From positions 405,050 through 450,680 of the forward strand of contig QPGO01000054.1 in assembly GCA_008632985.1 (NCBI GenBank): a DNA stretch of 45,631 nt, given 5' to 3'. The stretch is from Psammoneis japonica (Eukaryota). Below the pieces are notes generated by a model. The model worked only from the letters and a program-made list of their open reading frames with translations, had not been told where the DNA came from and ran no database searches. The translations under genes were made by a program, and so were the position numbers. Below, one piece after another: positions 1 to 42,779 of the stretch (positions are counted from its first letter, which is position 1; every line of letters starts with the position of its first letter).

Positions 1-2874
1 ACTTTGTGCCCTCCAATTTCTGAAGGCTCTGGTCATTGCCACAGATCTTCAACATCTCTTTCTTTCTGCTCATTTCAAGGCACATGGCATCCCCAAGAAG
101 AGGCTCTTTCATTGCTGCTGTGGAGTCAGTCGTCCAATGCCAACTTCTTACACTTCTCTCTTTTGGTGATTTCATTCTTGGCTTTCCCAAAGCTGTGTTG
201 TCATGCTTTGTCCATGCATGGAATGAAAGCATCATTTTAAACAACTGTGTCCAGCAGGACTGTCAAAAACATCATTGCACTTGACCCACAGGTCCTGGAA
301 TTCTTCATCTGAAATCTCAGCAGCTTTGCACAACTTTTGTCAAGATGGTTGGACAACATGACAGCAAACTCCTTCTCTTTGCAACTCCTGTCCTTGCTGT
401 CATTTCAGTTGTCTGCTGAAAATGCATGCATGCACAAGCAAAAAAATTTATGGCCAGCTGCACAAAGTCAGAGTCTTTGGGTCAAACATGAGGAAAATCT
501 GCAGGTTTCTGCACATTTCTGGTGCAAACAAGCACACTTTTCCATTGATGGTGGAGAGCCCACCAAATGCATCACTTGGTGCCACACCTTGTTTGTTGAT
601 GAGTCATTGCTGTTCCTGTGAGTGTTGCAGAGAGCAACTCATTTGTCACACCTCTGCTGCATGTGCACAGCTTTGTGAGGTCAATGCTGTCTTTTGGCAA
701 CCCACAAGACTGGAGAAACAAAGGAGAAAAAAATCAAAATCTCCTGCATTTCCATGGAGGCTTGTCACAATGTCTTGAAGTTCACATTCCATTGGGCAAG
801 ATGCTGCTTTGCAAGTTGTTGCTTTTGGGGCTTGTGTTTGGGCATCATGTGTGCAGTTTGACCACCTTTTTCAATTTAAGTGGGAACAGGTCAGCAGGAC
901 AAATTGAAGAAGAGTTGCCAATCACAGCTGCAAGCAAAGCTCCAAACCAACTTGAGTTTGTCACAGACTTGGCTGGCATTGGTTGAATCTTTTGAGCAAT
1001 GTTTGTTGGCAGCAGCAAAAGTCAGATGTGCCATTTGGCTCACGATGCATGTTGCACATGCACACATTGCTTGGACTGTGCAGTGTCTTTTTCTAATTCT
1101 TGCCCTCCCATGCAGCACCACCTGCAAATGCAAATGGCTTTGAATCATTTGAAAAATTGTCTGAAAAACAATTCTTGCTGTTGGCATTGACATGACTTGT
1201 CCCAAATTGGGCGGCAAACATGAGAACAATTGTTCCCAGTCAAAGGCTCATTTGACAATCACAAGGGCATGTGCAGTCCAAGCACATTTTCCAGTGGCCC
1301 AAACACACTGTTTGGCAGAATGGGAAAGAGATTTTTGGCTCAACACACACCTCCTTGGACCACAATTCAATGGCTTTTGCATTGAAAAGTGCCATGGAAA
1401 GAGTGGAGTTTGATCATCTTGTGAAACTCCAGCTGATTCATTCATGGCAATGACATTGCTTGCATGTTGCGCATTCCTCACTCTGCACATTTGTCCATTT
1501 CTCTTGATGCTCTAACAAGAGAAATCAACTCTTGTCTCACAGCTAAATTCCAACAACCCCAACAGCTCTTGCAATTGATCCCAGGCCAACTTGTGTCACT
1601 CATGTTCAAGAACAGCAACATCAGCTTCATGGTTGTCATGAAACAAAATCATCAAATGCTGTCACTCTGCACTGAGGATTGAGCTGCCCATGATGACACA
1701 CAACAGCTGGAGCTGTTGCAGTGCTTCTTGCACAACAGGGCCTTCACAATTTCACAGCAGAGACCACCCATTTGGTTTCAAGACACTGGTGCTGGTTCAG
1801 GACTGAGTGTCTCATTTTGAAAGTCCAGTTCCAGCAAACACAAGATGAGCTGATGAGCATTGTTTCTTCCAAATGTCCAAGTGGACTTGCATGGTTGTGC
1901 CCTGCTGCATGGCAGACAACTTTCACAATCAGCTCGCAATTGCAGCAACCAGTGCAGGGACAATTTCTGTCATCACAGTGCTTCCTGCAAAACACCATGG
2001 CCAGGTGTCAGGTGGTTGTTCTCTTCCATTGGAGTTGCTTGCAATGGCTTGGATGTGACGTGCATCACCTCAGAGGCATGTTGGAAGTTGCTTTGGTCAG
2101 CTGTCATTGTGCTGCCAAGATTGACTCTTTTGTTGTGTGAGAAAAGCAGGTGCCTCTTTGTTTTTCTCATTTTTGTTTCAAGATTCTGAGTGAGAGGGTC
2201 AACAAAAATTTGTGTGAAGAGACATTGGATTTTTTGGGCGTGTGTCACATGATTTTCAGCTGGTGGCTGAAACAACTCTGCTGGGTGATGGACAAACCAT
2301 GCACAGGGACAAGAGTCCTTAATTCTGTCTGAGACTTGGCATTGACAACAAGGCAGAACATTTGACCAAGATCTCTGCACTGTCTCTCTGGCCAAGACAG
2401 CCACAAAACACCTGCAGTGTCTTCCGAGCCGTTCCCTCATCCCATGAACACATCAAATCAGCTGGAGCCATCCAGCAGATTCCACACCCAATGAGCTGGT
2501 TTTGAGTGTTTTGAAGAGCTCACACTCAAGACAGGATGCATTGACAGGGGTGCAAGTCATTTTTTGACTTTTCCATGATCAACTCATCATTTGCATCTGT
2601 CGTGCCAAGGTCCTTGCACACTGAAGTGATTTGCACATTTCTTGAGTCAACCACACATGTGCACTGGTGCACCATGGGTCATGGGTCTTGTTGGTGGGAC
2701 AGTTGCACTCCCAAAATGGAGATGATTTGCTTGGTTTGCACAGCAAGCTTTGCACTGTCTGACAAAACCATCCTTGCCAAGTCCATGAGAGCAAACAGAG
2801 ATGGCAACAGCACAGTGTCACATTCTTTGCTGCCTTGAAGCTCTGCAAAAACCTGCAAACATTTTGGCTCCCTG

Positions 2875-2915
2875 CTGAATTTGATGGATGCTCCACTGAA
2901 TTTGATGGATGCTCC
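2875..2915 (+). repeat. Short tandem duplication
   Basis: ctgaatttgatggatgctcc occurs at 2875-2894 and 2896-2915. Confidence 0.9.
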
Positions 2916-3932
2916 TCAATGCCATCTTGAGCTCAGCATGACATTTGCAGCTCTGGACTCCCTTCAAGGCACTTTTGCACTGATGGTGCCCAGTTGAGAA
3001 ACTTCCATGGAAGACAACTGAGCTGTTGCAATGCACCACCCAAGCACAAACAAGCTTCTGGCAGGTTGTGCGCTGCAAGTTTCAAGCATGAAAGGGATCC
3101 TGCAATGAGCTTCTTTCAGCAGCATTGCCAGATTTGCATGACCAAAGTCTTCTTGTTGCTGCACATGACAACAGCACACCTGCAACAAAGTTGTCCCACC
3201 TCACACAAAGCCTTGCTTGAGACTCCTGAAAATGTGGCCATCTTGAAACCTGCTGGCATGATGCAACAGAGTGCGCAGATCATGCAGTCATGATGACAGG
3301 TTGTTGTTGCAGACAACACATTGCCTCTGCAAGCATGATGTGTCTGTGTCAGCCAAGATTTGCTGCACATGCAATGGACCACCCCAGGTCACAAGAACAT
3401 TGATGGAACAAAAAATGTTTGTGGTGTTCCGCGCACACACTCCAGGCCAACATGGGGAGCTGTTGTTGGCTCAGGAAGTGCAAAGATGTCCTGGAGATGT
3501 TGGTTGAATGATTGCTGTTGAAGATGGAGAAATTGAGCTGTGGTCACACAAGGCATCACATTTCCAGCCAAGCACATCCCAGAAATGACACTTGCATGGG
3601 AGCACAAATTTTGTTGCAAAGTCTTGGTTGTGCCACAAAGTCTTTGGAGTTTTGGCAGGCACTTTTGTCTTCCTTGGAGGAGATTGTGTGCACATGAAGG
3701 AACTGAGTTTTGGCTCCTTGCTGCAACCACTGCTGCTGCCACTTGCAATGACCTCTGGTTTTGGGGCAGCAAACAAAATGTGTTGGTCATCATTTGGGGG
3801 ATGTTGGAGTGCAGAGTCATGGGACAGCTTCTGAGTGCACTGGAGGGGGGGGACAAGAGCTGTCATCAGGGGATGAAGGATCAAGCACCTCATGCACCAT
3901 GCCCTGCAATGGGTGCTTCTTGATTCATCACT

Positions 3933-3963
3933 TTTGTTGTTGTTGTTGTTGTGGTTGTTGTTG
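3933..3963 (+). repeat. (TTG)n microsatellite, one interruption
   Basis: ttgttgttgttgttgttgtggttgttgttg seen directly. Confidence 0.85.
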
Positions 3964-6060
3964 GACAAGGAAGATGACATGCTTCTGCTGTGGCACAATC
4001 ATTTTCTTTGAGCTCCTTTGGGAATTTGTCTGCCTGTGTCCATCAGGGAGGGTCACTGTGCCATGGGGCTGTGCTGAGACAATGAACTGTGCCATTGCTT
4101 GTGCTGTTGGCATCCTCATGATTTGCTGCAAAGCTGGGCCCACCATCAGAAGAGTGCGAAGGGAATGTGTGCTTTCTAGGAAAATTGTGTGGCCCAGCTT
4201 CAACCCCCAAAGTTTCATTTCAATTGGCAAGAAAGGGCCAATTTTAGAGTGCAAGAAATGTGCATGATGTGTGTGGTTTTGCAAATGGCATCACATGCCA
4301 TTTCTTCAGAAATTCAGAGATCTGAAAGAGACATGCTGAACACAGTGCATGGATGGTCCTGCATGCAAGTGACTGACCCATGCCATTGTGCAGAGAGCAA
4401 ATTCCTGTCTTGCACAAAATCTCATCACAGAGCCAATTTGTTGCACTCACAACACCATGCTGAGTTGATTGAATGATCCTCCTTGACCACACACAGCAGC
4501 CAGCCCACCACACACAATGAGGGTGGAGGAAGACATGACAGGTGAGGTGAGAAACAACAGCAAGCAGACATTTGGTTCAAAGCGCCAACACTCACACACA
4601 GCAAGGTGGGCTTGTGCCTCACGCAGTGGCACAAGCAGGTGGATCCTCCTCAACAGCCACGTGGGATGCAAGTGTTGCCAGCACTGGAGAAGGGAGAGAC
4701 AACAAGTCTGTGACTGACAAATCATGGTGAAAGAAAAAGCAGCACAATGAGAAGAGATGCAGAAGAGAGACAAGGACAACTCTGAGGCACTTGGCAAGAA
4801 CAGTGCATTGTTTGGGAATGCACTGCAAGTTCCTGAACTGCAGTGCACTCAAGATCCACACAGGAGTGGTGACAGTGATGATGACAACAGTGGATGTGCC
4901 AAATGTTTTGCAACACAAATGCAAGCAAATCAGGGAGTGGCCAAAGAACAAGGTGAGCCAGCTGATTGCATGAGGGGACAAAACAATGCTATTGGTGAAC
5001 TTGGTCAAGCAAGAATGCAACCGCAAGTGCAGCCTGGGAAAAAAACTGACACAGTGATTGAAAAACACTCACACATTTTTCTGTTTTATTTTCTGGTGAG
5101 CACAGGCAGAGAGGGCTGTTGCACAAGAAAGAAAAAGCAGCAGATTGCAGAGAGATGCCAGCACTGGAGCAAATGCCAGGAAAAGCCAGGAACAACATGG
5201 GCACATGCTCTTGTTTCACACACTCATTTCTGCCTGTTGTTGTTGGCAAGAACACTTGAAAAAATGATGCATGGTCAACACCTGTGCTTGTTGCTGGTTG
5301 AGCTTTTGCAAAATGGCAAGGAGCGACAGGGTGCTTGCCATGTTGGTGCTGGAAAGCAACTGAAAGAACACAAGTGGAAACTCATGCATTGAAAGTCAAG
5401 GGAAAAGTTCAAGGAGGCTCAAGCAGAAGGCTGAACATCAACGGCTGATCACTGCATTGGAGTGAAAGCAAGAGAAGCAAGCAAGAAGCACCATGAGACG
5501 AGCTGGGCTGCAGCAGCAGGCCAGAAAGGCTCCCAGCACCACAGGTGCAGGCAGATGGACTGGATGAAAGGAGGTGGGCCATTGTGACCAACTGCAATGA
5601 AGTCTGGTTTCAACAGTTCTGCCAGATTGTGGACCACAAAAGGAGCAGCATGTCTGACCTTCTTGTCCAAGGAAGTTTGAGAGGAGAGAGCCAGGAGAGA
5701 GGAGAGGCAGACAAGACGTGGGTCTGCCCCGATGCTGCTGTGCAAAGCTTTCACTGTGGCTTTTTCCGTGGCTGGCTGCCTGCTGTTGTTGACCTGATGG
5801 TAAATTCTTTCTTGTGTGAAAAGATCGTTCTTCCCTTTCTTGCGTCTCACTGCCACTCCAACACTCGCAAGAGCACTGTTGTGTGCGACACAGAGATGGG
5901 TCCTTGCTTTTCTCGCACTGCAAACTGTGGTATCTTATGTATTATTGCACGAATTATTTCAATGTTTGTTTGCCTCAACGGACCATATATATTATTAAAG
6001 TATCGATGACAATATGAAGAAAATAATAATGAAGTCACTACACGTTTGAAAAGTCGGCTC

Positions 6061-6072
6061 TTCCCGCCAAAA
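6061..6072 (+). promoter_or_regulatory. E2F-like site TTCCCGCCAAAA upstream of the Reeler gene
   Basis: Resembles the TTTSSCGC consensus and lies about 140 bp before ATG 6211. The same motif recurs in reverse at 29640-29653. Function is inferred. Confidence 0.3.
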
Positions 6073-6210
6073 AACGACGTCACGCATGCGCGATCTGGAT
6101 CGGAGGTCGGAGTCGGAGGTCAGCATCAGCACAGCATTGTGTGTGTTGTGTTGTTTTTCGTTGTGTTTCGTTGTTGCAGACAAAAGATACCCTCTTATCA
6201 CCTCTTCACC

Positions 6211-7233
6211 ATGGTGTCCTTCCAATGTGCTTCGCTAGCCTTGGCTGCAGCCTTCCTTATGGGAAGAGCAGATGCCTTTCCAACCGGTGCCGGCGGCTGT
6301 GACGCGGGAGATCTTCTTTTGGACTCTGTTGGGGGTGCCGCGCATAGGACCCGTCCCACCACCACGGGGCCTCTTGCGGACGTTGGCTTTCAAGTCGCTC
6401 TCGACGACCAGGCCTTGACGTCTGGTACTCCAGCGAGCTTTGTGGCGGGCATTCCGCATACAGTGACTTTGACGGCCACGTCGGACAAGAGATTTCGTGG
6501 CTTTCTCATTCGTCTTGAAGATGCTGCTGGAGATATTGATACGACCCAGGCATTGTTCACAGAACCTACGCTGGGTGCCCCCCAAGTGCGTATTCTGGGA
6601 CTCTGTATCGAAGGTGAAGAGGTTGGTGGAGTCACCCATACAAACGGGGATGACAAGACGTCCGTCTCGGCGCTCTTGTTTCTCGAGTTTGGAGAGAGCA
6701 ACACCACTACCCCTCTCAGCATGGATGTAACCATGGTGGTTCAGAACAGTGGAACGTCCTCCGAGTGGTACTACTCTCCCTTTACCGTGAATTTGGTTAC
6801 TCCAGACACTGAAAACGATCCTTGTCCCATTTGCGGGGACGGCGAGTTGGCCGAATCGTCCGTCAACAAGACTATCACGTTGCCCAAATTCCCTCCCCTC
6901 ACGACTACACCCACCAATGCGACTTGTGGACAGGTGAACGACTGGGCTCTCGAGGGTGTAGTTGCAGCTCAACTTTGTACGGCCTTTCAGCAAGCCATTT
7001 CTGTGGATTGTCCTTGTGCTGGAGCGGAGCCGGACACCTTGCCTCCCTCCATGGCTCCTGGACCTTCGGAACCACCCACCTCGGAGCCGCCCACAATGAC
7101 GGATCCACCCACGATGACGGATCCGCCCACGTCGGATCCTCCCGCGACGGAAGCTCCCTCTGGCGCGTCTGCAGTCACTGTGCAGGCAGTGATTCTCTCT
7201 GTCGCGGCTTTCGGAGTTGCTCTCTTTGTGTAA
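6211..7233 (+). CDS. Secreted, probably GPI-anchored Reeler-domain cell-surface protein
   Basis: Signal peptide MVSFQCASLALAAAFLMGRADA|FPTGAGGC. Reeler-like motifs FRGFLIRL and GVTHTNGDDKTSVS. Cys-rich module CPICGDG..TCGQV..C..CPC, Pro/Thr repeats (TDPPTM) and a hydrophobic C-terminal tail after PSGASA. Intronless. Confidence 0.75.
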   Translation: MVSFQCASLALAAAFLMGRADAFPTGAGGCDAGDLLLDSVGGAAHRTRPTTTGPLADVGFQVALDDQALTSGTPASFVAGIPHTVTLTATSDKRFRGFLIRLEDAAGDIDTTQALFTEPTLGAPQVRILGLCIEGEEVGGVTHTNGDDKTSVSALLFLEFGESNTTTPLSMDVTMVVQNSGTSSEWYYSPFTVNLVTPDTENDPCPICGDGELAESSVNKTITLPKFPPLTTTPTNATCGQVNDWALEGVVAAQLCTAFQQAISVDCPCAGAEPDTLPPSMAPGPSEPPTSEPPTMTDPPTMTDPPTSDPPATEAPSGASAVTVQAVILSVAAFGVALFV

Positions 7234-7537
7234 GGTACAAAAGGATGCTCACGGATGTAATGGCTCTCTAGTCAAGGGGCCTCTCTGGTTTAACAAGTTT
7301 GTAGTTTCAAAAAAGTTAATTGCGGGTGATCCAACATATCGTACGTTCGTTCGCCCAGTTTTTAGTCATCGAACGACTTTCGCGTGTTGCTGTGATGCGC
7401 GACCAAGTTCAACTTGAAGGGACGTCGTAGATTTTGACGTCATTGTTGTACTGGAAACAAAGATATTTTGAGCATCAAGGGGAAACTTGATTCAAAAATT
7501 CTGATTTCTAGTGTCACGACCAGAACAAAAAGTGATC

Positions 7538-9484
7538 ATGAACATGACAATGCTTGTACGACTTCTATTCTTAAGCTACATTGGCTATACGCTTTTGGCG
7601 TCGACTCACGTCGTGGCTTATAGCGTCACAGCCAAGCGAAACCGAAAAGCAGTGGTGGTCGGAGGTGGTCCTGTAGGCCTCGCAACGGCATTGACATTGT
7701 CGAATCCTCCGCATTGTTTCGACGTTACCTTATTGGAACAATCCGTCGGCAATGCCTCAGTCGCTCGCTACGACCCTACCAAGGCATACTTGTATCTCGT
7801 CAATCCTCGCGGACAAGTCTGGATGAAGAACTTTCCCTCGAGTTTCGAAAAGCTGATCGAAAGAGGCGCAGAGAACAGCATGGGAAGCTTCATGGTTGTC
7901 CCTGCGGATCCAAACAAGCCGCTTCCAAAACAAAGATTGAGCAGCAAGAGGGAAAGTCCGTTGAAAGCAAGATTTTTACAGCCACTAATGCCGTCGAAAC
8001 GGACAATGATGACAAGAGCTATTGGATCCCGCGGCATCAAATGATTTTGCTCTTGATGGAGGTCATTGGCGAGCAAGAAGCCGCCCGTAAAAAAGAAAGC
8101 AACTCCGTACGAGGGTCGATCAAGCTAGAAAATGGAAAGAAATTCCACTCCATTCGATGTTTGGGAGGAGATGGTCATCATCAGCTAGTAGAAGTAGAAG
8201 CTCAGGATGCAAACAGTGCAAAAGCGTGCATTACGAGGCTGACCTTGTGGTTGGCTCGGATGGAGTGAACTCTGCCGTGAGTGCAGAGTGCTGATATCTT
8301 TCACTCTTGATGGGTGTGATTCTGACTCTTTTTTTCTTCCTGCTATAGGTCCGAGAGTATCTTGCCGCTGAACAGACGGCAACTCGCCCTGGATCTTGGT
8401 TGACGGATGCTCGCCATAGCTTCAAGGCGAAAAAGTGGGCCTCACCAGCCTCTGGGCTCGAATGAAGGTATCTATCGTGTCGCTTGCTTTACGAAGCTCA
8501 TTGTCGTTTCATCTGATACTTCCATAACCTCATTCTCACGCCAATTTAGGTACTACAATTCCCACCCAAATTCCCAATACCTGATTCGGACGGTTCCGTG
8601 TTTCATGCGAAGGATGGTGTACGATTCGTTCCGTCAATACGGGTCCAAGAAATAGACTATCGCTAGGTATTCTTCCAGTCAAGGATCCAACATTGGTTCG
8701 ACCAGCTAATGTTATTACTCGTCCAACCCATGATGCTTGGCAATTCCGAAACGGAAAGGAAGCAAAGCAATGGTTCCAAAAAGCATTCCCAAGACTCAAC
8801 TTTGACGATTTGGTAGATGGTGATGAATGGGATCGGTTTGTGGCGGCCAAGGGAACTACCTTTCCTCATTGTCAGTACAGCCAAGGCCTGCAGGTATCGT
8901 CACCGGATGAAACTTGTGGAGTCGTACTGGTAGGAGATGCCGTTCACGCGTTTCCACCAGACATTGGTCAAGGAATCAATGCCGGCCTATCAGACGTTGT
9001 AGCGCTGGACCGAGCTCTTCGAGGTTACGACATTGTTTCTGGAGAAGCTTCCAAAGAGAACAACAGTGCGCAGCCAAGCCTGGGGTCTGCATTGAAAGAA
9101 TATGAGCGTGTACGACTTCCAGAGGTGAGACCGGGATCTAGCTCTGGCATTCTTTGCTGTCATTCTTCTCACTTACGACTTGTCGTTTCTGTTGCCATAC
9201 AACAGGCAAAATCTTTAGTTAGGATTGCAAGGTTTGGCTCTCCTTACCAGTACCGCCAATCTCCCATTCGAGATCGCATTGGTCGATTCTTTTGGATATT
9301 AAACAGTCTTCCTCGGGTGTTGCTACACAAGCTGTCGTTTGGTGTTATTCCACCGCCCATGATGATGATGATCCAAAACAAAAGACTTACATATAGACAG
9401 GTGTCGAGACGAGACAACATTACCACTGCTGTCATGGCTGCTTTGATACTCGGTTTAAGTTATGCTGTTCGCGTCATCGCATGA
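7538..9484 (+). CDS. FAD-dependent monooxygenase (kynurenine 3-monooxygenase/UbiH-like), copy 1, four exons, about four -1 frameshifts
   Basis: GGGPVG dinucleotide-binding motif, ADLVVGSDGVNSAVR (DG motif), LVGDAVHAFPPDIGQGINAGLSD (GD motif). Introns about 8277-8348, 8468-8549 and 9125-9205 match the paralog's positions. Frame breaks near 7928, 8221, 8459 and 8610, so either sequencing errors or a pseudogene. Confidence 0.8.
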
Positions 9485-10866: not shown

Positions 10867-13253
<2,387 letters not shown>

Positions 13254-13621: not shown

Positions 13622-15695
13622 TCATTGGCAAAGACCAACAAGAAGCTGTTTGATAGTCTTTCCGAATATCGCCCAAACCACAGAAATGATCATGGTCGTC
13701 AGAAGCGCCGTAGTCATGTCGGCTCGTCGCATCGCTTGTCGAAATGTAACATCTTTTTTCATCACCATCATTATCGTTGGAGGAGGAATGATTCCAAACG
13801 AAATCTTGTGTAGCAAGGCACGGGGAATCACGTTGAGTGTCCACAGAAATCGGCCGACGCGATCCTTGCGAAGAGATTGGTTGTACTGATAGGGTGCGCC
13901 GAACCGAGCGACTCGGATCAATGCCTTGACCTAACAAATAGAAGACACGAGTGAGACCTTATCAATTGTGGACACAGTCAATAAAACAACGGATAAGTAC
14001 CTCAGGCAATCGCACACGCTCATACTCTTTCAACGCTGCTCCTAGAGTTGGTAGAAGCGTGCTCTCGTTCGGAGCTTCCCCTGTGATTATGTTTTCGCCG
14101 CGCAGAGCCCGATCCAGAGCTACGACATCGGACAGACCCGCGTTGATTCCCTGACCAATGTCTGGTGGAAACGCGTGTACCGAATCGCCCACCAATACCA
14201 CTCCAGCATTCTCGTCTGGAGACGATACCTGCAATCCTGGACTGTATTGACAAGGTGGAAATGTGGTACCCTCCGCCGCTACAAACCGATCCCATTCCTT
14301 GTCGTCTGTCAATTCATCAAAGTTCAGTCGCGGAAACGCCTTTTGGAACCACTCCTTTGCTTCTCGACCACTCTTGAATTGCCAAACATCATGACTAGGA
14401 CGCGTAATGACATTGATGGATCGAACCATGTTGGGGTCCTTTACGGGAAGAACACCAAAGCTAATTCGATTCGTGGGGCCAGTATTGACAGAGCGAATTG
14501 CAAACGTACGCAGGCCCTCGGCTTGAACGACAGTTCCGTCTGAGTTTGGTATAGGAAATTTGGGTGGAAATTGCAGCACCTACAGGACAGTCAAGTGGGT
14601 ATTGTTGTGAGAAAAAGACCAGACGAGCGCCTTCGTCAAAAAACCATGTTTCCACGCATACCTTCATTCTCAACCCAGTGGATGGCGACGTCCATCTTCT
14701 TACTTTAAACTTGTAGGGAGTCATTGTCACCCAAGAGGCTTCGACCGGGGATAAGGCTAGAGGTGCAGTTATTGGGACTATTGTGTTTTCTTCTGCGAGA
14801 CATTCACGAACCTATTGTGCCAAACAGAATGTTTCACTGAGAATGGACGAAGGATCCCAAACACGATACACAGTTTAGGTATACTTACTGCAGAATTCAT
14901 CCCATCAGCTCCAACAACAAGATCAGCCTCATATGAATGCTTGTATCGTGCCTTTTTTGACTTCATATCCTGAACTGTCACCTCGAGTTGATGGTCCTGT
15001 CCCCTCAGACATTGAATTGACTGGAACTGCTTGCCATCTACTAACTCAATAGACCCCAATTCACTGTTCTTTTCTTTTTTACGAGAAGCTTCTTGTTCGG
15101 CAATTACCTCCATCAAGAGCACAACCATGGAGTGGCGGGGAATCCAATAACTCACGTCCTTCTCAGCGGCATTGGTTGCTGTAAACATCTTGCCTTCGAC
15201 GGACTTTCCTTCTTGCTGCTCAACCTTTGATTTTGGAAGCGGTTTGGTTGGATCCGCAGGGACAACCATTAAGCTTCCCATGCTATTCTCTGCACCTCGT
15301 TCAAGCAGCTTTTCGAAACTCGAAGGAAATTTCTTCATCCAGACTTGACCCCGAGGATTGACGAGATACAAGTATGCTTTGGTAGGATCGTACCGAGCGA
15401 CGGACGCGTCACCCACTGTTTGTTCCAACAAGGTGACATCAAAACAGTGTGGAGGATTCGACAGTGTCAGCGCAGTTGCCAATCCAACAGGACCGCCTCC
15501 AACCACTACTGCCTTTCTCTTGTTGACAGTTTCCGCTTTCTGGCCACCACCGGTAGTTGAAGCGACCGCACCGATGGCAGCTTTTCTTCGCGAGCTGGCA
15601 GAAGGAACCATTGCATCAGTCGTCGCACATGTCTGACTGCATACAAAGCTGAACAGTGCAAAGCCACCCAAGGAAGAAAGTACCCGCTTCATCAT
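13622..15695 (-). CDS. FAD-dependent monooxygenase (kynurenine 3-monooxygenase/UbiH-like), copy 2, intact
   Basis: Exons 15695-14889, 14811-14662, 14579-14001 and 13930-13622 with GT-AG ends splice in frame. Motifs GGGPVG, VGADGMNSAVR and LVGDSVHAFPPDIGQG. Signal-peptide-like N-terminus and hydrophobic C-terminus. Confidence 0.88.
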
Positions 15696-15758
15696 GGCCT
15701 GTCGTTCTTCTGGGTGATGGGGAACACAACGACGACAACAACGCCAAGCACCATGATG

Positions 15759-15810
15759 TGTCAGAAGTCAGAAGAGTCAAAAGAGTCAAAAGCAAGTCAA
15801 AAAAAGAGCC
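15759..15810 (+). repeat. Degenerate (AGTCAAAAG-like) tandem repeat in a ~305-bp divergent promoter
   Basis: gtcagaagtcagaagagtcaaaagagtcaaaagcaagtcaaaaaaagagcc lies between ATGs at 15695(-) and 16001(+). Confidence 0.6.
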
Positions 15811-16000
15811 AAAAAAGCTGCGCTGTTTATTGCTGTTAGTTTCTTGCGCTTCTATGAGAGCGCAGTTAGTCGATAGATTCGCATCAAAGATTCCGAATTC
15901 CATGAGCTCGCAAATGGATTTCGGTCTGCTATCGTCCGTCTCCGATGCACCAAACTCCCGAAACTCCTCATCATCCTTGACTATTTTTGACCGCATCGCC

Positions 16001-19000
16001 ATGGCGTTCAGTGGCTTTGGCGCACCCGCTCCGGGTGGAGCGCCCGCACCAGCGCCTGCTGGTGGTGCCTTTTCCTTTAATACAGGAAATACAGCAGCAC
16101 CAGCCGCGGCTCCAGCAACAACGGGGTTGAGCTTTGGTGCACCAGCACCCGGAGCAGCAACGGGAGCGGCGCCGACTCCCGCAGCACCAGCGCCGGCGTT
16201 TAGCTTTGCGACGGGTGCACCTACTGCTGCACCAACGCCAGCGACAACAACAGGTACGACTCAGGCACCAGCTACAGGAATAAACTTTGGTGGAGGTGGT
16301 GCACCGGCGGCGGCGGCAACGCCCGCAGCAGCACCCGCAACAACAACACCGGCACCAGCAGCGGGATTTAGCTTCTCTTCGACTGCACCAGCGACAGGTA
16401 CCACACCGGCACCGGCTGCAACTACTACGTTTGGAGCCACTATTCCAGCCCCATCAGCTACTCCGGCACCGGCGGGTGCCTTTGGTGGTTTTTCTGCTAC
16501 ACCGGCAGCGGGTACAACACCAGCAAGTACGCTTGGAGCTGCACCAGCAACTGCAGCTACGCCAGCAGCTCCCGCAGCACCGACTGTAACTGTACAAGAT
16601 TTTGAAGAACAGTTTCCTTATTCATCCATACTGTCCAAGGTGAAACGCTTGCTACCGCTCGTTTCCAACGATCAAGCGACTTTGGAATGGCAAGAGCTCT
16701 TTCATATTTTACAGTGCCAACCTACTTCTACCGACAAGTCTGTCATTGGCCATTTGCTCTCCAAGCCACCACCCTTGCAGTGGAATGCCCGCAACGATGC
16801 GTTCCGGTCTAGACTACAAGCCAGTCCGACCGTTTTGTTGCAGGGCAAAACGGCCGGCCTTACGCCAGAAATGATTCAAGAAATTTGGCAATTGGCAGAC
16901 GATTTGCGCATTACAGAAGAATCGGCCCTTTGCCTCTATGCCCAAGCAAGTGACCCCAAGAAACGAAGGCTGATGGAGTCCAAGCTTCAAGCGTCCGGCT
17001 CAAGTCTGACGCTTGGAACCAACGTGCCCAAGGCCGCCCGAGAGCTCTTTTTCTACGAGCACAGCTGTGCGCTCACCACCGTCCTGTTGCTTTTGCAACA
17101 GCGACTCCAAGCTTCCTCGGATCAGACTACGCCCAACGCCTTTCTCGTGGCGACGGACCAATTGATTCAAAATGGTTTGGTGGAGAATTTAATTTCTCTT
17201 GTTCGTGAATACACGCTCTTGGCGGATAACTTGGAAAATGAGTGGGCACGGAAAAAGGCAAACATGCAAGTTCCAGCCTTTGGAGGAACGCCCGCGACGA
17301 CGTCGTCGAACGATAAGGGATTCTTGGCTGAGCTCTTGGACTTTGTGCAAAAGCAAAGGCAAATGGCGAGCGAGTGTCTCTTTTATCTTACCTATCACAC
17401 TCAGTGTACGCCACAAGAAGTGGCCTCCTTGATTGATATCGTCAAGGAATTGACCAATGGCAAAGATAACGCTACCGGTAGTGGCTTACCCATTTTGGAT
17501 CCGTTCAAGGACATTCCGTCTGCTTTTGAAAATGATCCAAACGCGGTCCCCGTCGCTACGGGACCGTTTGCGACGGCTTCACCCTTTGCCGCACCGGTGC
17601 CAGCCCAAAAGGAAAAGGATCCACTCAAGTGGCGAGAGGAATTGATCAAGAACGTGTGGGAGAGCGGGGGGAAACCGCAGCTACTCAAGTGTGTGTCGGT
17701 GTTGATCATGTCTATCATTTGTGCACTGGATGGACGACAAACCTTGATGGATCGAGCTCGGCATGGTCCGAATCAATTTGGAGTGGTAGGTTTGTTGTCT
17801 CATGTTGTAACTTTGAATCATGCGGAAACCACAATGGATCTCACATTTTATTCTTTTCTCTTTCACTGACTTTCGATCACAGGGAAATGCTCTACTTCCG
17901 CCGACCCAAACTGGTGTTCCAGGCTCAACAGATGACCTATTGCCGATTCATTCACGTCTTGACCCCAAGAAAGAGATGCACAAGGATTGGAAACGCAAAG
18001 ATATCTGGGGTCTGTTGGCCGCTTCGTATGCGCTCTTGCTTCTTCCTGTAGAAATCGTTTCTTCTTCTCCTCGTAATCGAAGCCGGTCGCACTCCTCAGA
18101 CAGCTTTTCACCGCGTAGAGGCCAGATTGACGTCAAGGCAACCTGGCGAGCATGTCTCGAAGCACCGACTGAGATGCAGTCTTTTAGTTTTGCGCGTCTC
18201 TCGTTGGTGCCTTCCTTTGCCAAGCGCTCGTACGGACCCGACTGCAAGTGCAACAATTACGAGGTAAGTCCAGCCGTTCTCATTCTCGTTTTTGTCTTGT
18301 CTGGTGTACAAGAGATACTCACATGTCCTGGTCCTTTAAGTTCTATATGTCTGTCCTTTCCGAGTTCGTCTCGAAGTATCTTGATGTCCTGTGTGCGTCT
18401 GGAAACGTTCCGATTTCAAGAGAGCAGTGGAAATCGGACGAGGAAATGGAGTTGCAAGTCAGCCGGGCTCAACGAGACCAGGATCGGAAGTTTGGGGACT
18501 GGTCGGGAACATCGACGACCGACGTGCAAGACATTCCCAACGAAGTGGATCTGTTAGGGAGGCCTGACTGTATGGACGACGTCATGGCGTTGGCCGTTAC
18601 GGTTTGTTCGACTGGTCCCACATTTGCGCTCAATTTCTGGTCTGTCGCAGATGAAGTCGTAATAGAGGGCGACACCTCTATCACTCGACCAACTTTGGTA
18701 CCAAGTCGGGCGATGCAGACAATGGAACTTCTAGTTGCAAAGGATGAGTCCTTACGGCCTGCTCATATATCTTTTCTTGGCGCGTTGGCCTTGGCACAGG
18801 GGCCTGAAGAAAACCCTGAATGCAGTGGGGCGGCTGTCATTCACAAGAAGCTGTCTGCCGAAGTTGACAACACCAAAGTGAGTTGGTACTCCATTCTCTA
18901 TAATATCGGGTGGTATGCCAAACAGTTGAATACTAGCAAAGCAGGACTGAGAGGCTCGACAGAAACGATGCGTACCAATACTTCCAGTGGTTTTGATACC

Positions 19001-22000
19001 GCGTCGACTGCCTATTACTACGGGGCGGACCAAAGCAACGGCGGTGGAAATTTTCAATCTTCGCAGTCGCAGCAAACAACGACCACAGCGTCAGCGGAAG
19101 CCAAGCCGACGGAACTAGGAGAGGCCAATCAAAGCACAATCTTGTCCCACCTTGCTCTAATTTCAAGCGTGGCGTCTCAATCTTCCGAAGCAAGAGCTGA
19201 CATTGCAGCAAAAGCAGTACCCATCAGCGATGGCGTGGGAGGAGATCATGGACTCACCATTCTGTTTTCCATGGCGATTGCTCCAGTTTCTCCAGAAATC
19301 CGAGGAGCTGTATTTGTCGCCATCTCCAACATTCTACGCGAACCATCGCTGTCATCTGTGAAAAACAATAAGACAGTGCAAGACATGGTGAGGAAAGGTT
19401 GGGATTTGCTGGAAGAAAGCCAGATCATCCCTATTGGGCTACTTGATCAGTACGCCGCTCCCACGGGAGTTTCGCGGACAGCGGTAATGGGCTTTCCGCT
19501 CTCCTCGACAGCTCAGGTATGTTTTGGCATTGAAATGTCGTTCTTTTTTCGATGGCGGCTTACTTGTCGTATTGCGTTTCCTTCACTTAAGGTCGCGACA
19601 GGAGCGGCAGAGCAGTTCGGCACTCCGTGGACGCCTCCTGATACTAGGTTTGGTATTATGTATGAAATGGAACACGTCGAGTCTCGCCAAGGAGTTTATC
19701 CTTCGACAGAGGGGTTGCTGCATCTGCTGACGACTCTTGTCATGGTTGGTGGTTGCCCCGCAGATCTCGGTCGATTCTGGAGGCCGCGCTCTGGTTGCTC
19801 CCCGTACGTCGAGTACGTAATCCATTTTGTGCTTCCTCGAGCACTGGGGACAAAGAATACTGACCAGGGTTTGCCGTTTCGAAATCTTGGAGACAAGAGC
19901 CGATTGGTCTGCCTGGCTCTCGAATTGGTGGAGGCCGTATTATCTCGCTATGTTGTTCCATCACCCCTTGGAAAGGTCTCTGGAAGCTCAGAGCCTCAAA
20001 TCACAAGCGCAGTGTTTGGTCTTTCGTCAGTTGCTGAAGCTATCTCCATACATCCGAATGAAGCTGACCAGAAAGCGTATGCGGCGGACTGCCGCGATGA
20101 ACTGGTGTCACACAGAACTAATTCTGGAAGCGACACGACTGGTGGCTTGTTGAGTGGTGGTATCGCGGCTCAAGCCCCGTATACACCATCAACAGCGGCT
20201 CTTACCGGTGACGCTGCTCTTCCTCTGCCCAAATCACCCGGGTTTGCGGTTCTGGTTGATATTTTGTCTTCCTTATACGGCGATCTCTTCAAATCAATCG
20301 TTTCTTTGTTGACTCAAGACTTCGCGTCCCGTGGTATGATTGAAATGTATGGGGATCCTGAATATTACGCAGTCGTTGCTGCCTCGCTGTTCGGGAGAAC
20401 ATCGCCATCATTCCATATTGCCAAGCAGGCTACTAATCAGAACCAGTCATCGTCGCCGAACAAGCACGCGTTACTAAAACCGCCATTTCCTGCTCATTAT
20501 CAGCCTGCACGTCTCATTGCTTGTGATGATGCGTCCGCAGTCTCGATTGATGGGACTTTTTGGAGAGAGCGCTCCGTCTCCCTGGCGCTTCGCATTCTTT
20601 GCGCAGCTGCAATTCGCGAAGACCAGTTCTCTCGGATTGTCAATGGCTTACGTCATCCGATGAAGATTGTGCCTGTTCTAAGGTTACACAGGCTTAGCGG
20701 TAGGCCTTCTGGAATCCGTGCATACGATGTGCAGGTGTCGAGGCTTGTTGATTTGTTGAAGTCCTCGGCCGGAGTTTGGGATTCTCAAGGTGCAGGAGAT
20801 GGTGTTTTCCCAACGATCATGAAGTATCTCGGATACGTGTCGCCATCTTGGAAACAAGACGCAGAGGTTTCCAGCCCAGCTGTCGCTCTGATGCTTTATG
20901 CTGATCGCATGTTACCGGCTTTGGAGACGGTGCGAACGCTCTGTGGTGCCTCCTCGAATGGAGGCACACATCTTGCTGTTGCAGTGGCGAGAAGGCTGAA
21001 AGTGTCATCCACGCGGGTAGAGATAACTTCTCACGCAGATATTGTACGCGTCATTTTGAATCTATTGGTGTCAAAGTTGCGAGGAGACTCGGCCAGCGAT
21101 GACGTGAACATCTCTCATATTATGTTAGGATTGCCAAAAACTTCGATTGCCACCGATTGGGACGCTGCCTCTGTCGACATATGCGCGGATTCATTTGATG
21201 TTATCGTGGAGCAGATATCCCGCATTGATTTTGTTCGCGACAGTCGCACCTCTAAATTTGCAGCAACGGCTTTTGAAATCTTGTTCTGTCTGGTTCGCAC
21301 GCAGGGCATTGACCAATCTAGAAAACTGACTCGAGTTCTGTACGCGGCACAACGGCTTCGCGGCATCGATTTTTGGTACAAGAATCTTCTTCTATTCATG
21401 GAGAGAGGAGGAGAGCAGCGTTGTATTCTAGAAGAAGCCACATCAAGCGCTGCGGATGAAAATGGCAGTGAGTTACTTCATTGTGTCTCCTGGCTGTTGA
21501 AAGGCGTATCGAACGAACTTCGGCTGTTGATGGGAGTTTCAACACAATTGAAGGACGGACCGATCCCCTCCCAGTTGTTGGGAATGGCGTCGCCGCGCCC
21601 AACCTCTTGTCGACGTCTTCTCTCGCTACTTTTTGCTGGGCCTAGTTTCCTAGCAGTTCACGCGCTGAACTACCTACCTCTGATACGGAAAAGCGGCATG
21701 AGCTCCTTGTCTTTGCCGTTGAATGAGGTGGAAGATATCCCCTTGCAGGGTCCCGCCGATGTTGTTGCAGGGTATTTCATCATCTCCATTGACAAATTAC
21801 GTCATAGATTTAGTAGCCAAGGAGAGAATGAAGCTGCTAATGTCGCGCGGAAATCGGCGGTTGATTGGGCCAAAGAATGGAACTTGGTTGTTACACGAGA
21901 CTGCGCTGTTTCTCATTTCGCGGATGCGCTACGTGTAGTGTTCGGTTCATCATTTGTCTTCTGTGGGAATCTTCTTCTCGGTGGCGGGGCGCCATTAGAC

Positions 22001-24193
22001 AGAGGGGGGGTCTTGCAGTATCTGTCTCTCATATTGTCACGGCTGACGGACGAGATGAACGGCATTAGTGATTCTCGTGGTGTAAACGACGCTTTGTACC
22101 ACAAGGCAGCTCTTGAGATGGCTAGAGTCGCTCTAGTTCTGGTTGAGGAGATCGCTGGCGCGAAGGATAGCACACAGCAACCTCAACTTCCTCTCGATAG
22201 CGGAGATGCCGTTAGTCTTTATGTGCAGCTCTCGACGGCGGTCGCGGTGTCCTCGAAGGTTGACGGCCAAACTTTACATGAGGTTGAAAGGACTGTTTTG
22301 CTCGGGAGATGCCTTGCTTTGATATCAGAAGCTGTATTTAGAAGTCCAAATGGGTTGCACAACGTTGATGGGGAGAAAGAAAACATCTTACTTGCGGCCT
22401 CAGCATTGGCTAGAATTGCGAGCAAGCCAGTGAGCGGGTCATCTAGGGTTGACTGGACTCCTCGCGGCAACCGAAATGCTTCTATGATTCGAACTGCCAG
22501 GTCGTCTCTTTCTACTTTACTAACGTGTCACGAAAACGACGACGATGCACGTGAGGAATCCTTGGTTTTCAAATTATTCAAGATGGGTCCTGCACGTCGT
22601 GACAGAGCTGAAAAGGATTCAATATCATCCCTCCTTTCTCTTGTGACTACCTTGGACGACGATGTCTACAACATCTTATCTAGCATTGCACTCTGTCGTT
22701 TCGGCGCGGAGCTTCTGCATGAAGCCGGTTTGCTCGCTGTTCTTGAACGGGCTGCTCAGCGCTACACCGTAGAAGAAGGCCGAGTTCGCGCTCAGGTATC
22801 GTCGACGAATCAACACGTTGACATACGCACCCCATCGTTTCTGTCGGGACACTTTTCGCTATTGAATGCAATGCTGTCGACTCGGTCACTTTCACCGGAC
22901 AACCGCCAGAAGGTCGCAGAGGACGCAAAAGAAATTATCCGTTGTCACATCCCAATAGTGGAGCGTTTGATCCTCTCATTCCCAACCGACGGGGACGTAG
23001 TTTTAGAGTTCACGAAGTGCCTTTACTTGGTATCGAAACCGCGTGACTTCGACAACCCTGCTGGCGGTCAGAATCTATGGCAACTGGACAGCGTAAAGTC
23101 ACGAAGCCATATCGACCAAAGGAATTGGGCTGCTGTCGAGAAGCTAGTGCTTGAACTCACCTACCATGTGTCACAATACCCCTTCCCCCGGAGACTTCTG
23201 CCAGTACTTCCTGCGGCATTAAATGACACCCAAACCTCTCAGGAGCCTTCAAATCATGTTGTTTCCGTCTCAAATGCAGCCACGAGAATCTGGTGGGACG
23301 CCGTTGAAAACCGGCTTCTAAGTAAGGAACGGAATCCGCTTCCAGAGCCTCCTAGAATCGCGGCGAGCAGTGGAGTTTGGTATAATGATGTACCAGATCT
23401 GAACAGCAGCGGTGGGTGGTCCGACCAACACTATGAGTTCTGCATACAAGCTTCTCGGATTCTAGATTCCAGTTTGTCATTTTTGAATCAGCGAGTGCAG
23501 CTTTCGCCTCCACTCCGCATTGATTGTTTCGCACTGGCAAAAGGATTTTGTCGATGCGCGGACTCCGCAAGAGTGAGTATCCCATGTCGTTTTCCAGTTG
23601 CGTTGTAACTAGTTGGTTCTATCAGCGTCTCTGACTTACTCGTTATTTGATCTATTCATCAGGCCATCGAGGGTAGGCTTCGTACGCTCGCAGGCGCGAC
23701 TAGTGGCTCGTTGGTGACTGACGGTGTCTTCAACATAAGCATGACAAGCAACGAGGAAAGCACGAGAAGCAAACAAATTGAGCTGGAGTATCTCTCGCTC
23801 CTGGGCCCTATCATCGGTCGTTGTGCAGAGAAATTTCTCGTGCTCACTTTATCATACCTTCGCGGGGTTGCTCGTGAATCAATGACTGGGTCTGAGATGA
23901 TAGGAAGCACCCATCAACCGAAATGCCAGTTGCGGGTTTGTCAGAGTTGATGCTAGCTTCCCTCGATCACACGCAGGTTGAGACGATGGTGAGTCGTCTG
24001 TGCCCAATGCATCGTCTTTCTTAATCCATTCCCGCCAACTCCCATTTCCAATTCGCCTTTTGTTTATTTTATTTTTCAGGGTGTTGGATGCATCGGATAT
24101 GAGAGAGGTGACGAAAAAAAGAGAGACTTTGCTAGAGAGATATCGAAAAACCTGCGGAAGGAGCTGCAGGGCGAAATGAAGATGTTTACCTAA
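16001..24193 (+). CDS. NUP205: Nuclear pore scaffold protein Nup205/Nup192 with N-terminal FG-repeat extension
   Basis: Nup205-like blocks EIWQLADDLRITEESAL, TDQLIQNGLVENLISL, QRQMASECLFY, GIMYEMEHVESRQGVYPSTEGLLHLL and PADLGRFWRPRSGCSPYVEYV. Introns about 17786-17882, 18264-18340, 19517-19591, 23573-23662 and 23989-24079. One missing base near 23911. Stop TAA at 24191-24193. Confidence 0.8.
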
Positions 24194-24308: not shown

Positions 24309-26129
24309 TCACTGGATAATGCGGAAGTCAACACAGACACGAGATTGTCGCTTTGCTATCGATCCGCAGCTAGCAACGTGAATAATTTCCACTGACAATC
24401 CCATTTTGTCGCACGCTTTCTGGATCGTTTGCTTAGTCCGTTCGCATCCTCCAGCTAGCTCAGGATCAGACGCAAAATCGTACCAGTGGCATTCTCCATT
24501 CTGCCGAAGCATGGGCAACAGCGCCTCCAGAAACACTGCTCCCGCGTCACCTTCACCCAAGTCTCCATCGAGTGCACCTTCCTTGGGTCTCGGAGCTACG
24601 ATTCGATCAAACGATTTCTCCTCGAGTGTACCAAGAACTTCCAAAACGTCTCCCTCCACGATATGTAGCCGCTCCGCCGCCCCTTTGCATTTAACTGCCT
24701 TGTTTCTCTCTAGCATTCGTTTTGCTCGTCTGGCGCACTGCACAGCAATGGGATTCAATTCAACAGCCACAACAGATGACGCCTCAGTCCTACCAGCAAT
24801 TTGCATTGCATCCATGGCAACCCCCGCGAATAGCACCAAGACATTTTCTCCTCTTGCAATTTGTTGACATATTCTCAAACGTTCGGCACCCATGCGAGGA
24901 CTAAAAAATGTATGATTCAAATCAACTACACATTTGATTCCATATTCAGTGTGTGAAGTTACAAGCGGTGATCGGTTCGGACCAGCTAGAATTACAAGGC
25001 CGCTTTCGCCAGGCGAGCGTTCGGTGCCAGACAAGTTGCTTGTTCGTGCCGCACATATCTGAAAGAATGCAAAACAAAGACTGTCAGTGAGCCTTGAAGT
25101 TAACAAGAACATCAGAACAGATTGTGCTTAACATCGTACCTTGACTGCCTTATTTCTCCTGAGAATCGCTTCTCCAACCGCTTCTCTGGCATCCTTGTCG
25201 CCGGTCGGCATGGAATGGAGTAGAGCGACATCCCCAATCACATCGTAGCTCTTTGGGATAGCGATTTCTGAGATGCCATCAAGCAATGCAGAAGTATTAT
25301 CTTCACTTTCATCTACACAAGACGATGGCATTTCTCTCACTGCCTGAGCGAAACGTTCGATCTTTTCCCAGTTTCTTTCGTGACGAGAGTTGACCAACTC
25401 CTGAAGCCAACCTTCCAAATTCTCGTAAAGAAATCTTCCATCCGGTGCGCAGAGAGGCATATCTAGCCCTTCATCACCCCAAATTGCAACAAGGTATGAA
25501 GATGAATCAGTATCATTATGCCTCCAAGAAGTAAGACCCACATTTTTGAACGCAGGTCTAGCTGCCGCCATGAGAGCGTTTGCACCCGTTAGCGAGCGGC
25601 AAGCGACGTGCAAAATAAATGGTTCGAATCGAAGCCACACTGTCCGAGCGCTATCTGACCCATTTGCATCTGACAAAGAAAACGGAGAGACAACATTATC
25701 ATCTCGAGAACTAGTCATGTCTGCTCCGCTCGCCTCTTCGTTCGATCCCTCGTGTTGTTCTTTGTGATCGTATTGGCCAACAGATCGAAGCACGTCCGCT
25801 CCACCTGTCGGATCCTTGTCGAGCGTTGTCAAATCAAAATACCGCATGGCATCCTTAACTAGATCATGGGCAATTCTACATCGCTCAAACGCAATTGTGT
25901 CTTCATGATTGATGCTCTTTGTCCCACGTCCCCGATAGAGAAAGCATCTCCCAGAACACGATGATGTCGTGTAGTATTCTTTTCGTCCATTAATGAGAGA
26001 ACAAATATCAACGGCTCGCACATCGATTCGACCTGCAAAGGATTTATCACGTTTTCCCAAGCACTGGTTCTTTTTGTTTTCAAAGTTCTTGCAACGCCGT
26101 GTCCAGGAGGAAGACACCGACGACGCCAT
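24309..26129 (-). CDS. TYW3: tRNA wyosine-pathway fusion: TYW3/Taw3 methyltransferase + Trm5/TYW2-family (Met10+-like) SAM domain
   Basis: N-terminal DKSFAGRIDVR..INGRKEYYTTSSCSGR and RFEPFILHVACRSL (TYW3). C-terminal SYDVIGDVAL, FFSPRMGAERLRI, GENVLVLFAGV, AVELNPIAV, DRIVAPRPK, HWYDF. Exons 26129-25140 and 25058-24309. Confidence 0.88.
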
Positions 26130-26351
26130 TGCACCGACCAATCCAAAGCGACCGTACCAAAAACAAAAAAGTGAGGTGGAAAAAAACGGACGGTGGAGCG
26201 GACGCTTCAGTCTGTCCGCTTGCTCCCCGCCATTGCTGGTTTCGCGCGAGAACGCGCCGGGTTGGTACCGAATTTTTTCACGTTTCGTCACAATCGCGGA
26301 GCCATGGCGTTCGAGTAGGTGCTCTCTAGAGAGTACCGCACTTTAACCATC

Positions 26352-42612: not shown

Positions 42613-42779
42613 TGCTGTTGATGCTGCCACTTTGTTGTGCCAACAACATCCACAATTGAGTGGTGCCAACAACTGACGCTGCTTTCCATTCTTGCCCCAC
42701 CACCTCCCACAGATGCTGTCAATGCCAACCCTGCACTGCCAGTCAACGCCATCCACAATTCCTGTGTTGGCATCTCTGT

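Follow-up and report, generated by a model that had tools for sequence, protein, structure and literature searches.

Near-complete loss of TpA from two tracts of diatom DNA, a probable footprint of TpA-directed hypermutation

Repeat-induced point mutation (RIP), a process of ascomycete fungi, changes C to T mostly at CpA, which creates TpA, and it needs duplicated sequence. A hypermutation that turns TpA into TpG or CpA has been described in the chlorarachniophyte alga Bigelowiella natans, where it affects integrated DNA of nucleocytoplasmic large DNA viruses (NCLDV) and of virophages (Mettrop et al., 2026, bioRxiv 10.64898/2026.01.13.699255; hereafter the preprint). As its text reports, 231 of the 302 nuclear mutations in mutation-accumulation lines fell into one NCLDV region and one virophage region; A to G and T to C changes made up 230 of these 231, and all of the GC-biased ones lay on TpA; the rate, about 6e-7 per site per generation, was ~1000-fold above background. 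The NCLDV region is single-copy with a Rho of 0.45, TpA has a mean frequency of 0.0018 across 324 low-TpA coding sequences, and an ADAT2-like protein was proposed as the candidate enzyme on homology alone. Targeted A:T to G:C hypermutation of DNA had not been known from nature until this 2026 preprint described it in a single rhizarian alga. Here we analyze a window of 45,631 bp from the diatom Psammoneis japonica (assembly GCA_008632985.1, contig QPGO01000054.1, positions 405,050 to 450,680 of the forward strand), both ends of which are occupied by tracts that have lost almost all TpA. A preliminary description of the left tract had proposed a "reverse RIP" acting on repeat DNA and had known of no described mechanism, a statement that the mutation-accumulation results from B. 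natans overtake.

The left tract (1-5930) contains exactly 13 TA dinucleotides by direct count, an observed/expected ratio (O/E, with the expectation taken from base composition) of 0.03. About 201 would be predicted from the TA frequency of the neighboring genes (Poisson P(<=13) 1e-67), and the minimum among 1000 mononucleotide shuffles was 365. CG is also scarce (30 sites, O/E about 0.08-0.09), and TG (696, O/E 1.84) and CA (697, O/E 1.94) are in large excess. The remaining 39.7 kb of the window have a TA O/E of 0.46 and a CG O/E of 0.86, and across ten long open reading frames (ORFs; nine host genes and one reverse transcriptase ORF) the TA O/E is 0.30-0.57, or 0.37-0.57 for the host genes alone. 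The preliminary counts, of about 13 TA in 5.9 kb where hundreds are predicted, of scarce CG with over-represented TG and CA, and of normal TA in the adjacent genes, are thus borne out. A second tract, which had not been noticed, lies at 41810-45631, with 7 TA against ~130 expected (O/E 0.03, P 1e-45) and a CG O/E of 0.32, less CG having been lost here than on the left. Overall ~97% of TA is gone from the tracts, and the loss of CG amounts to 68-92%. In 1-kb windows, TA O/E is 0.00-0.18 and TG/CA O/E 1.66-2.09 within 1-6000, and 0.02-0.03 and 1.79-2.28, respectively, within 42001-45000. The longest TA-free run measures 1857 bp; elsewhere than in the tracts such runs average 32 bp and reach at most 375 bp. 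Both tracts extend beyond the window, the left one off its start and the right one off its end.

How closely do these tracts resemble the affected regions of B. natans? On the preprint's account, the two share the restriction to TpA, the appearance of both TpG and CpA as products on either strand, and the confinement to discrete regions beside normally mutating DNA. In both, TpA-depleted, CpA+TpG-enriched 1-kb windows are clustered, and those of the tracts here lie within the preprint's window thresholds. The TpA frequency of the left tract (13/5930 = 0.0022) is close to the mean of the low-TpA coding sequences of B. natans (0.0018), and the process acts on single-copy DNA in each case, here in the left tract as judged by depth in one sample. 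The differences are as follows. B. natans is a rhizarian, whereas the host here is a diatom, a stramenopile; the preprint documents de novo mutations, whereas the tracts are a fossil footprint; and the NCLDV region has a Rho of 0.45, whereas the tracts are saturated, at an O/E of 0.03. Decay of CpG with borders of its own accompanies the loss of TpA here, while "CpG" occurs 0 times in the main text of the preprint; a bias by the 3' neighbor is seen here, while the preprint's text reports none beyond the TpA dinucleotide itself. Finally, the targets in B. natans are viral, but the one identified here is a helicase/DUF6589 unit rather than a recognizable virus. The searched literature, whose coverage excludes most subscription journals, yielded no account of TpA erasure from any stramenopile, diatoms included. 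By analogy, the diatom tracts most likely extend to a new phylum a process so far experimentally shown only in one unrelated alga.

The right tract retains traces of its ancestry (Table 1). An exhaustive HMMER search with the ORF at 42915-43409 gave 19 matches (best E 5.6e-17); Pfam DEAD and/or Helicase_C was present in 8 of the 17 relatives scanned, and 3 of the 10 relatives looked up bear the Joint Genome Institute (JGI) label "superfamily II DNA helicase RecQ". A search built on a five-sequence alignment produced 248 pattern matches, one locus of which, L001, served as the intact reference. This 11.6-kb metagenome contig (1-11572) encodes an intact helicase ORF of 621 amino acids (aa), a 774-aa DUF6589 protein (Pfam DUF6589, E 2.2e-8) and a 443-aa ORF, and its dinucleotides are normal throughout (TA O/E 0.68, CG O/E 0.93); its 289-aa and 443-aa ORFs match no Pfam family. 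Remnants of all three L001 genes are detected by tblastn in the right tract, their order and orientation matching those in L001, with ~2.9 kb absent between the helicase and DUF6589 remnants. These collinear remnants mark the right tract demonstrably as a dead copy of a conserved multi-gene unit of helicase, DUF6589 protein and third gene, and this unit is probably mobile. No reverse transcriptase was detected in the right tract or in its helicase/DUF6589 unit, and in the searched literature DUF6589 appeared only in unrelated work on rust fungi. Pfam found 0 families in six-frame read-throughs of either tract, and 0 in nine shorter right-tract pieces at E <= 5; a PHROGs search of the left tract in six frames gave 0 matches, and the left-tract ORFs 4751-5392 (+) and 3471-3998 (-) had no homologue at E <= 0.01.

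Table 1. Tracts, border zones and gene remnants at the two ends of the window
Feature	Position	Strand	Evidence
Left tract core, TA and CG almost erased, TG/CA nearly doubled	1-5700		12 TA vs 194 expected, 22 CG vs 338 (gene-like frequency)
Left border zone, TA erased, CG largely recovered	5701-5930		1 TA vs 7.8, 8 CG vs 13.6 expected
Right border zone, TA erased, CG mildly reduced	41810-42600		2 TA vs 26.9, 28 CG vs 46.9 expected
Right tract core, TA erased, CG ~74% lost	42601-45631		5 TA vs 103, 47 CG vs 180 expected
Internal tandem duplication of ~180 bp, right tract	42320-42736		blastn self-match of 42320-42576 with 42502-42736, 74% identity
Decayed gene for a RecQ-like DEAD/DEAH-box helicase; frameshifted once near 43000, interrupted by in-frame TGA stops, C-terminal half missing	42685-43820	+	HMMER, tblastn
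DUF6589-family gene remnant, collinear with L001	43839-43973	-	tblastn with L001:7530-9854(-), E 5.3e-10, 51% identity over 45 residues
Third-gene remnant, collinear with L001:10002-11333(-)	45315-45629	-	tblastn, E 8.1e-8 over 106 residues

The direction of change was approached in three ways. Relative to neighboring gene DNA, the left tract has gained 540 TG+CA against a loss of 504 TA+CG, and the right tract 358 against 275. In a forward simulation, neighboring gene DNA was converted in silico at the observed completeness; for the left tract this predicted a CA/TG O/E of 1.85 and a GC of 0.473, where 1.90 and 0.470 are observed, and for the other dinucleotides the simulated conversion fitted only slightly better than none (root-mean-square deviation 0.114 versus 0.136). 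For a test of polarity, 501 right-tract codons were aligned to the intact, TA-normal L001. None of the 27 TA sites of L001 is kept in the tract, where 12 (44%) read TG/CA (Fisher p 1.5e-4), and only 2 of the 46 CG sites are kept, with 17 (37%) reading TG/CA (Fisher p 1.3e-4); the background for other L001 dinucleotides is 112/818 (14%). Five of the seven Tyr codons of L001 are TGY/CAY in the right tract, and at three Tyr columns on which at least 40% of relatives agree the tract reads CAT, TGC and TTC, while at seven Arg columns with the same agreement it reads CGT, CGG, TGG, TGA, TGC, TCA and GCC. Pooled over relatives, their Tyr faces Tyr in the tract in 0 of 57 pairs, Cys in 9 and His in 8, where Tyr-Cys pairing among the relatives themselves makes up 2.9% of pairs; taken alone, the amino-acid test on ORF 42915-43409 has few conserved Tyr columns and little power. 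The comparison points consistently to TA/CG as the ancestral and TG/CA as the derived state, a statistical conclusion drawn with distant relatives.

Part of this signature is familiar. The change of CG to TG/CA, with a CG O/E of 0.08 in the left tract and 0.32 in the right, and with more than a third of the L001 CG sites (17/46) converted, resembles decay driven by 5-methylcytosine (5mC), and diatom transposable elements (TEs) are reported to be CG-methylated through DNMT5a (PMC9998398). The CG loss would then be ordinary CpG decay, which would explain only the CG half of the signature: such decay cannot remove TpA, of which 97% is lost against 68-92% of CG. Nor do the two losses coincide in space. 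At the left border there are 0-1 TA per 100 bp until 5900 and then 10 in 5901-6000; the final sparse TA stands at 5801, the TA-free state terminates between 5801 and 5931, and at 5931 begins the TA-rich upstream region of a gene at about 6211. CG is back from about 5700. Where the tract meets an active gene, the erasure of TA ceases over a distance of about 130 bp. At the right border, which begins 75 bp after a scaffold gap of Ns (41636-41735), positions 41736-41835 hold 5 TA and the following 200 bp hold none. Overall the loss of TA extends 200-800 bp further out than the CG-depleted zone. Since TA is gone in border zones where CG largely persists, TA erasure is either faster or spatially wider than CG loss, and it is equally complete in the right tract, which retains about a third of its CG. 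Together with the mass balance and the polarity test against L001, these non-coinciding borders uphold the preliminary suggestion of a region-targeted conversion of TpA to TpG/CpA. The stretch at 40800-41635, directly before the gap of 100 Ns, is purine-rich and by eye loosely repetitive, with motifs such as cgaagggagtcatgg, and has a normal composition (TA O/E 0.71, CG 0.81); the true junction with the right tract is unassembled.

Could the elements always have been poor in TA and CG, for instance to escape a nuclease or a sensor, or could selection have purged TA from them? Two points favor this: viruses and phages are known to avoid short words, and no ancestor of the left tract could be identified. 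The genes of the right tract, however, are dead, with frameshifts, TGA stops and ~2.9 kb deleted, and therefore offer no function for selection to preserve; the tract's intact relative L001 has normal TA and CG; conserved Tyr codons have become TGY/CAY and conserved Arg codons TGN; and the left border lies in non-coding DNA beside a host promoter. We regard a native composition as very improbable.

The sequence of the left tract was checked against Logan contigs, a re-assembly of sequencing run X1, one of three runs from one sample and one study; this check and the depth estimate cover the left tract and its border. One contig spans 1-4476 with 3 differing letters, none involving TA, and another (4742-7236) bridges the left border into the adjacent gene with 0 differences over 2495 bp. 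Because an independent re-assembly gives the same sequence, the TA-free state is not a product of the assembly pipeline. The shared origin of the three runs, which are perhaps the source of the assembly itself, would allow for a sequencing or assembly artefact, but we hold this to be extremely unlikely: the re-assembled sequence passes without a break into a normal gene, the effect follows biological borders, the coding remnants show the predicted amino-acid changes, and the surviving TA sites depend on context. Of the three differing letters, the one at 2938 (A, giving CA, in the window; G, giving CG, in the Logan contig) may be an allele or an assembly difference, and the others (815 G>A, 4106 G>T) touch neither TA nor CG. 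A further run, X2, labelled "DNA?", yielded gene segments only (for example 6216-7259), with a Reeler-domain gene at depth 320 and a skip of 110 bp at 7930-8041; it behaves like a transcriptome and is not used as evidence.

Word depth in run X1 is 63-72 over the left tract and 52-63 on contigs of adjacent genes, and the Logan contigs of X1 include no long paralogous contig of the left tract at 80% likeness or more. By blastn, the two tracts share no similarity with each other, and against the rest of the window the only match is the tandem duplication inside the right tract. The left tract is single-copy today and is not a young multi-copy repeat. With single-copy depth and no similarity between the tracts, the designation of the target as repeat DNA is not supported, and the single-copy state of the left tract likewise removes the ground for calling the process a reverse RIP. 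What the tracts do share with RIP is the irreversible mutational inactivation of unwanted DNA in defined stretches with extreme dinucleotide skews. Unlike in RIP, TpA is destroyed (O/E 0.03) and CpA enriched (O/E 1.94), the left tract is single-copy by depth, and the two tracts lack mutual similarity. Many diatoms are reported to carry DNMT4, a relative of the RIP enzyme RID (PMC9998398).

Further properties of the process can be read from its products and its survivors. The strands are hit equally, with TG/CA counts of 682/687 in 1-5800 and 457/447 in 41810-45631 and homogeneous 500-bp bins, a symmetry that fits a process on double-stranded DNA rather than the copying of one edited RNA strand. 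Of the surviving TA sites, 13/19 stand in YTAR (Y, pyrimidine; R, purine), compared with 198/1013 in genes (p 6.6e-6), and 0/19 in RTAY. A two-strand model was fitted that treats hits on the two adenines of a site as independent and lets their rates depend on the base that follows. In it, survival is 0.07 where this 3' base is a pyrimidine and 0.46 where it is a purine, so that the rates differ 3.4-fold (likelihood-ratio test p 3.9e-7); the fitted relative rates are 2.7 for TAC, 2.7 for TAT, 1.4 for TAG and 0.34 for TAA. TA followed by a purine is spared, TTAA especially (7 sites left of about 14.5 expected), and the preference is for 5'-TAY-3', equivalent to 5'-RTA-3' on the other strand.

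Hypermutation in a characteristic neighbor context recalls the innate defenses by which animal deaminases edit retroelements and viruses, namely APOBEC3, which acts on cDNA, and ADAR, which acts on double-stranded RNA. Unlike APOBEC, whose C to U changes show up as G to A on a single strand, the process here changes A:T to G:C on both DNA strands; unlike ADAR, which edits RNA at 5'-UAG (PMC10661471) and leaves strand-asymmetric clusters of A to G, it yields TG and CA equally and prefers a 3' pyrimidine. These points bear on the idea that transcripts of a retroelement, or double-stranded RNA, were hyper-edited by an ADAR-like enzyme, reverse-transcribed and integrated. Such an enzyme would prefer a 5' U (PMC10661471, Table 1), and a reverse transcriptase element is at hand in the window (36072-39218). 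Yet one copied RNA strand would yield TG or CA but not both, the ADAR hot spot 5'-UAG (PMC10661471) falls into the very context, TA plus purine, that is spared here, and the right tract derives from a helicase/DUF6589 unit in which no reverse transcriptase was detected. The 97% erasure also reaches past the zone of CG loss to the upstream region of a gene. RNA editing is accordingly a highly unlikely source of the tracts.

Error-prone repair synthesis by a Pol-eta-like polymerase recruited to silent chromatin was among the candidates named in the preliminary description, beside a DNA adenine deaminase and a modified A or T base, which are taken up below. Pol eta misincorporates opposite T at WA motifs, most strongly at TA, and it also produces transversions. 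Loss at AA would be expected along with loss at TA, but AA/TT is not depleted in the tracts (O/E 1.21 and 1.23, compared with 1.18 in genes), and the loss of TA is balanced by TG+CA, that is, by transitions only. We consider this candidate disfavored and very unlikely.

In conjunction with the comparison to B. natans, we propose the following account of the tracts, which we consider probable as a description. Both ends of the window would be silenced, decaying DNA in the nuclear genome of the diatom, on which two separate mutational processes have acted. One would be the decay of CpG to TpG/CpA that is expected for CG-methylated diatom TEs. The other would convert TpA to TpG/CpA through A:T to G:C transitions on DNA, on both strands equally; it would have run nearly to completion with no need for high copy number, and would most likely be of the same kind as the locus-targeted TpA hypermutation of B. 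natans. Pure transitions that strike the T:A pairs of a single dinucleotide on either strand, and only inside bounded domains, point to enzymatic base modification in DNA. As the leading candidate for the chemistry, we tentatively suggest that a TadA/ADAT2-like enzyme deaminates adenine in DNA to hypoxanthine. In tRNA, the edited A34 is preceded by the universal U33, so a TadA/ADAT-like enzyme would have an inherent taste for T-A-pyrimidine, which fits the observed preference. Of the motifs listed in PMC10661471 (Table 1), 5'-ACG for TadA/ADAT2 fits the preference for a 3' pyrimidine, and 5'-UAG for ADAR does not. Targeting may proceed through silent chromatin or small RNAs, given the sharp border beside the upstream region of a gene and the independence of copy number, and the process may serve as a genome defense.

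An attack on the other base of the pair deserves consideration. A TET/JBP-type dioxygenase could oxidize the T of TpA in silent chromatin to 5-hydroxymethyluracil or 5-formyluracil (5hmU/5fU), which would mispair with G at replication and change T to C, read as A to G on the opposite strand. The symmetric signature cannot tell which base of the T:A pair is attacked, and a preference for TAY equals a preference for RTA on the opposite strand. Base J occurs at TpA in the telomere repeats of kinetoplastids, 5hmU in dinoflagellates is concentrated at TpA, and 5-formyluracil causes transition mutations. Nothing specific to the window speaks for a modified thymine, however, and the authors of the B. 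natans work favor the ADAT2-like deaminase, on homology alone (bioRxiv 10.64898/2026.01.13.699255). We think a modified thymine unlikely, though well worth keeping in view.

Several observations weigh against the proposed account or limit its reach. The process is seen here as a footprint only and could be extinct rather than ongoing. The description of the target as foreign or mobile comes from the right tract alone, since no match points to an origin for the left one. The context preference is drawn from 19 surviving sites, with the ancestral TA context assumed to be like that of the neighboring genes. The runs are probably the assembly's own source and come from one sample, which leaves a platform-level artefact formally possible, yet very unlikely because the properties of the tracts are biologically coherent. 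In the right tract, the surplus of TG+CA exceeds the deficit of TA+CG by 83. The forward simulation, too, gives a GC O/E that is too low (1.08, observed 1.31) and an AT O/E that is too high (0.92, observed 0.82); from this misfit, the ancestor was not simply gene-like. L001 is distant (35-51% protein identity) and belongs to another organism, which makes the polarity test statistical rather than site by site. Lastly, the TA sites of L001 that were converted went to TG in 11 cases and to CA in 1, which probably reflects which codons stay alignable.

What would such a process in a diatom mean? A saturated footprint in this lineage would imply that TpA hypermutation is not peculiar to Bigelowiella, and it points to a lineage with knock-out tools in at least one species, CRISPR/Cas9 knock-out having been reported in Phaeodactylum tricornutum (PMC9998398). 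Any candidate enzyme would have to account for action on both DNA strands, for the order TAC = TAT > TAG >> TAA, for independence of copy number and for borders unlike those of CpG decay. We speculate further, as a bolder and rather doubtful extension, that diatoms and chlorarachniophytes, perhaps the whole Stramenopila-Alveolata-Rhizaria (SAR) assemblage or more, share a genome-defense DNA adenine base editor. It would have 5'-TAY specificity, possibly derive from TadA/ADAT2, target foreign DNA that has been silenced, in however many copies, work nearly to completion, and be independent of cytosine methylation and wider in span. A natural DNA adenine deaminase would be of interest to developers of base editors. 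For annotation, the tracts carry a warning: stretches free of TAA and TAG stops and of Tyr codons yield long spurious ORFs and hide a TE or viral origin.

The DNA between the tracts encodes Nup192, a TYW2/TYW3 pair, an FMN/FAD oxidoreductase, ankyrin and tetratricopeptide repeat (TPR) proteins and an RNase T-like exonuclease, together with the reverse transcriptase ORF. The TYW3 ORF has 373 relatives with a best identity of 59%, and the organisms named among its listed matches are all diatoms (Seminavis, Nitzschia, Pseudo-nitzschia, Amphora, Cylindrotheca and Attheya), which marks the host as a diatom, probably of the pennate group, rather than Bigelowiella. The adjacent ORFs 24309-25112 and 25128-26291 (-) carry TRM5/TYW2 and TYW3 methyltransferase domains, which most diatom relatives combine in a single protein of 540-650 aa; they are probably parts of a single gene that is interrupted by a short intron or a break of the frame. 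ORFs 15656-17869 and 18248-23608 (+) correspond to consecutive stretches of Nup192 (profile positions 44-253 and 507-746) and probably form a single nucleoporin gene split by an intron.

The retroelement at 35500-40800, with an intact 1048-aa ORF at 36072-39218 (-) (RVT_1, E 1e-10), is intermediate in composition, with a TA O/E of 0.30-0.32, a CG O/E of 0.77 and 0.9% Tyr, 5.0% His and 3.7% Cys. Its surviving TA sites stand in YTAR in 12/70 cases, which is no enrichment (p 0.76), and in RTAY in only 4/70, on a strand that is strongly purine-rich. It may be an early-stage target of the TA-erasing process, a reading that the purine-rich strand confounds. Two sets of ORFs resembling FAD-dependent monooxygenases, at 7511-9484 (+) and 13962-15695 (-), sit on either side of the FMN/FAD oxidoreductase gene (11223-13253), one set per strand; both have DAO or Pyr_redox_2 N-terminal parts and FAD_binding_3/SE C-terminal parts. 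Logan contigs match 7644-7930 with 41 differences, which suggests a paralogue elsewhere in the genome.

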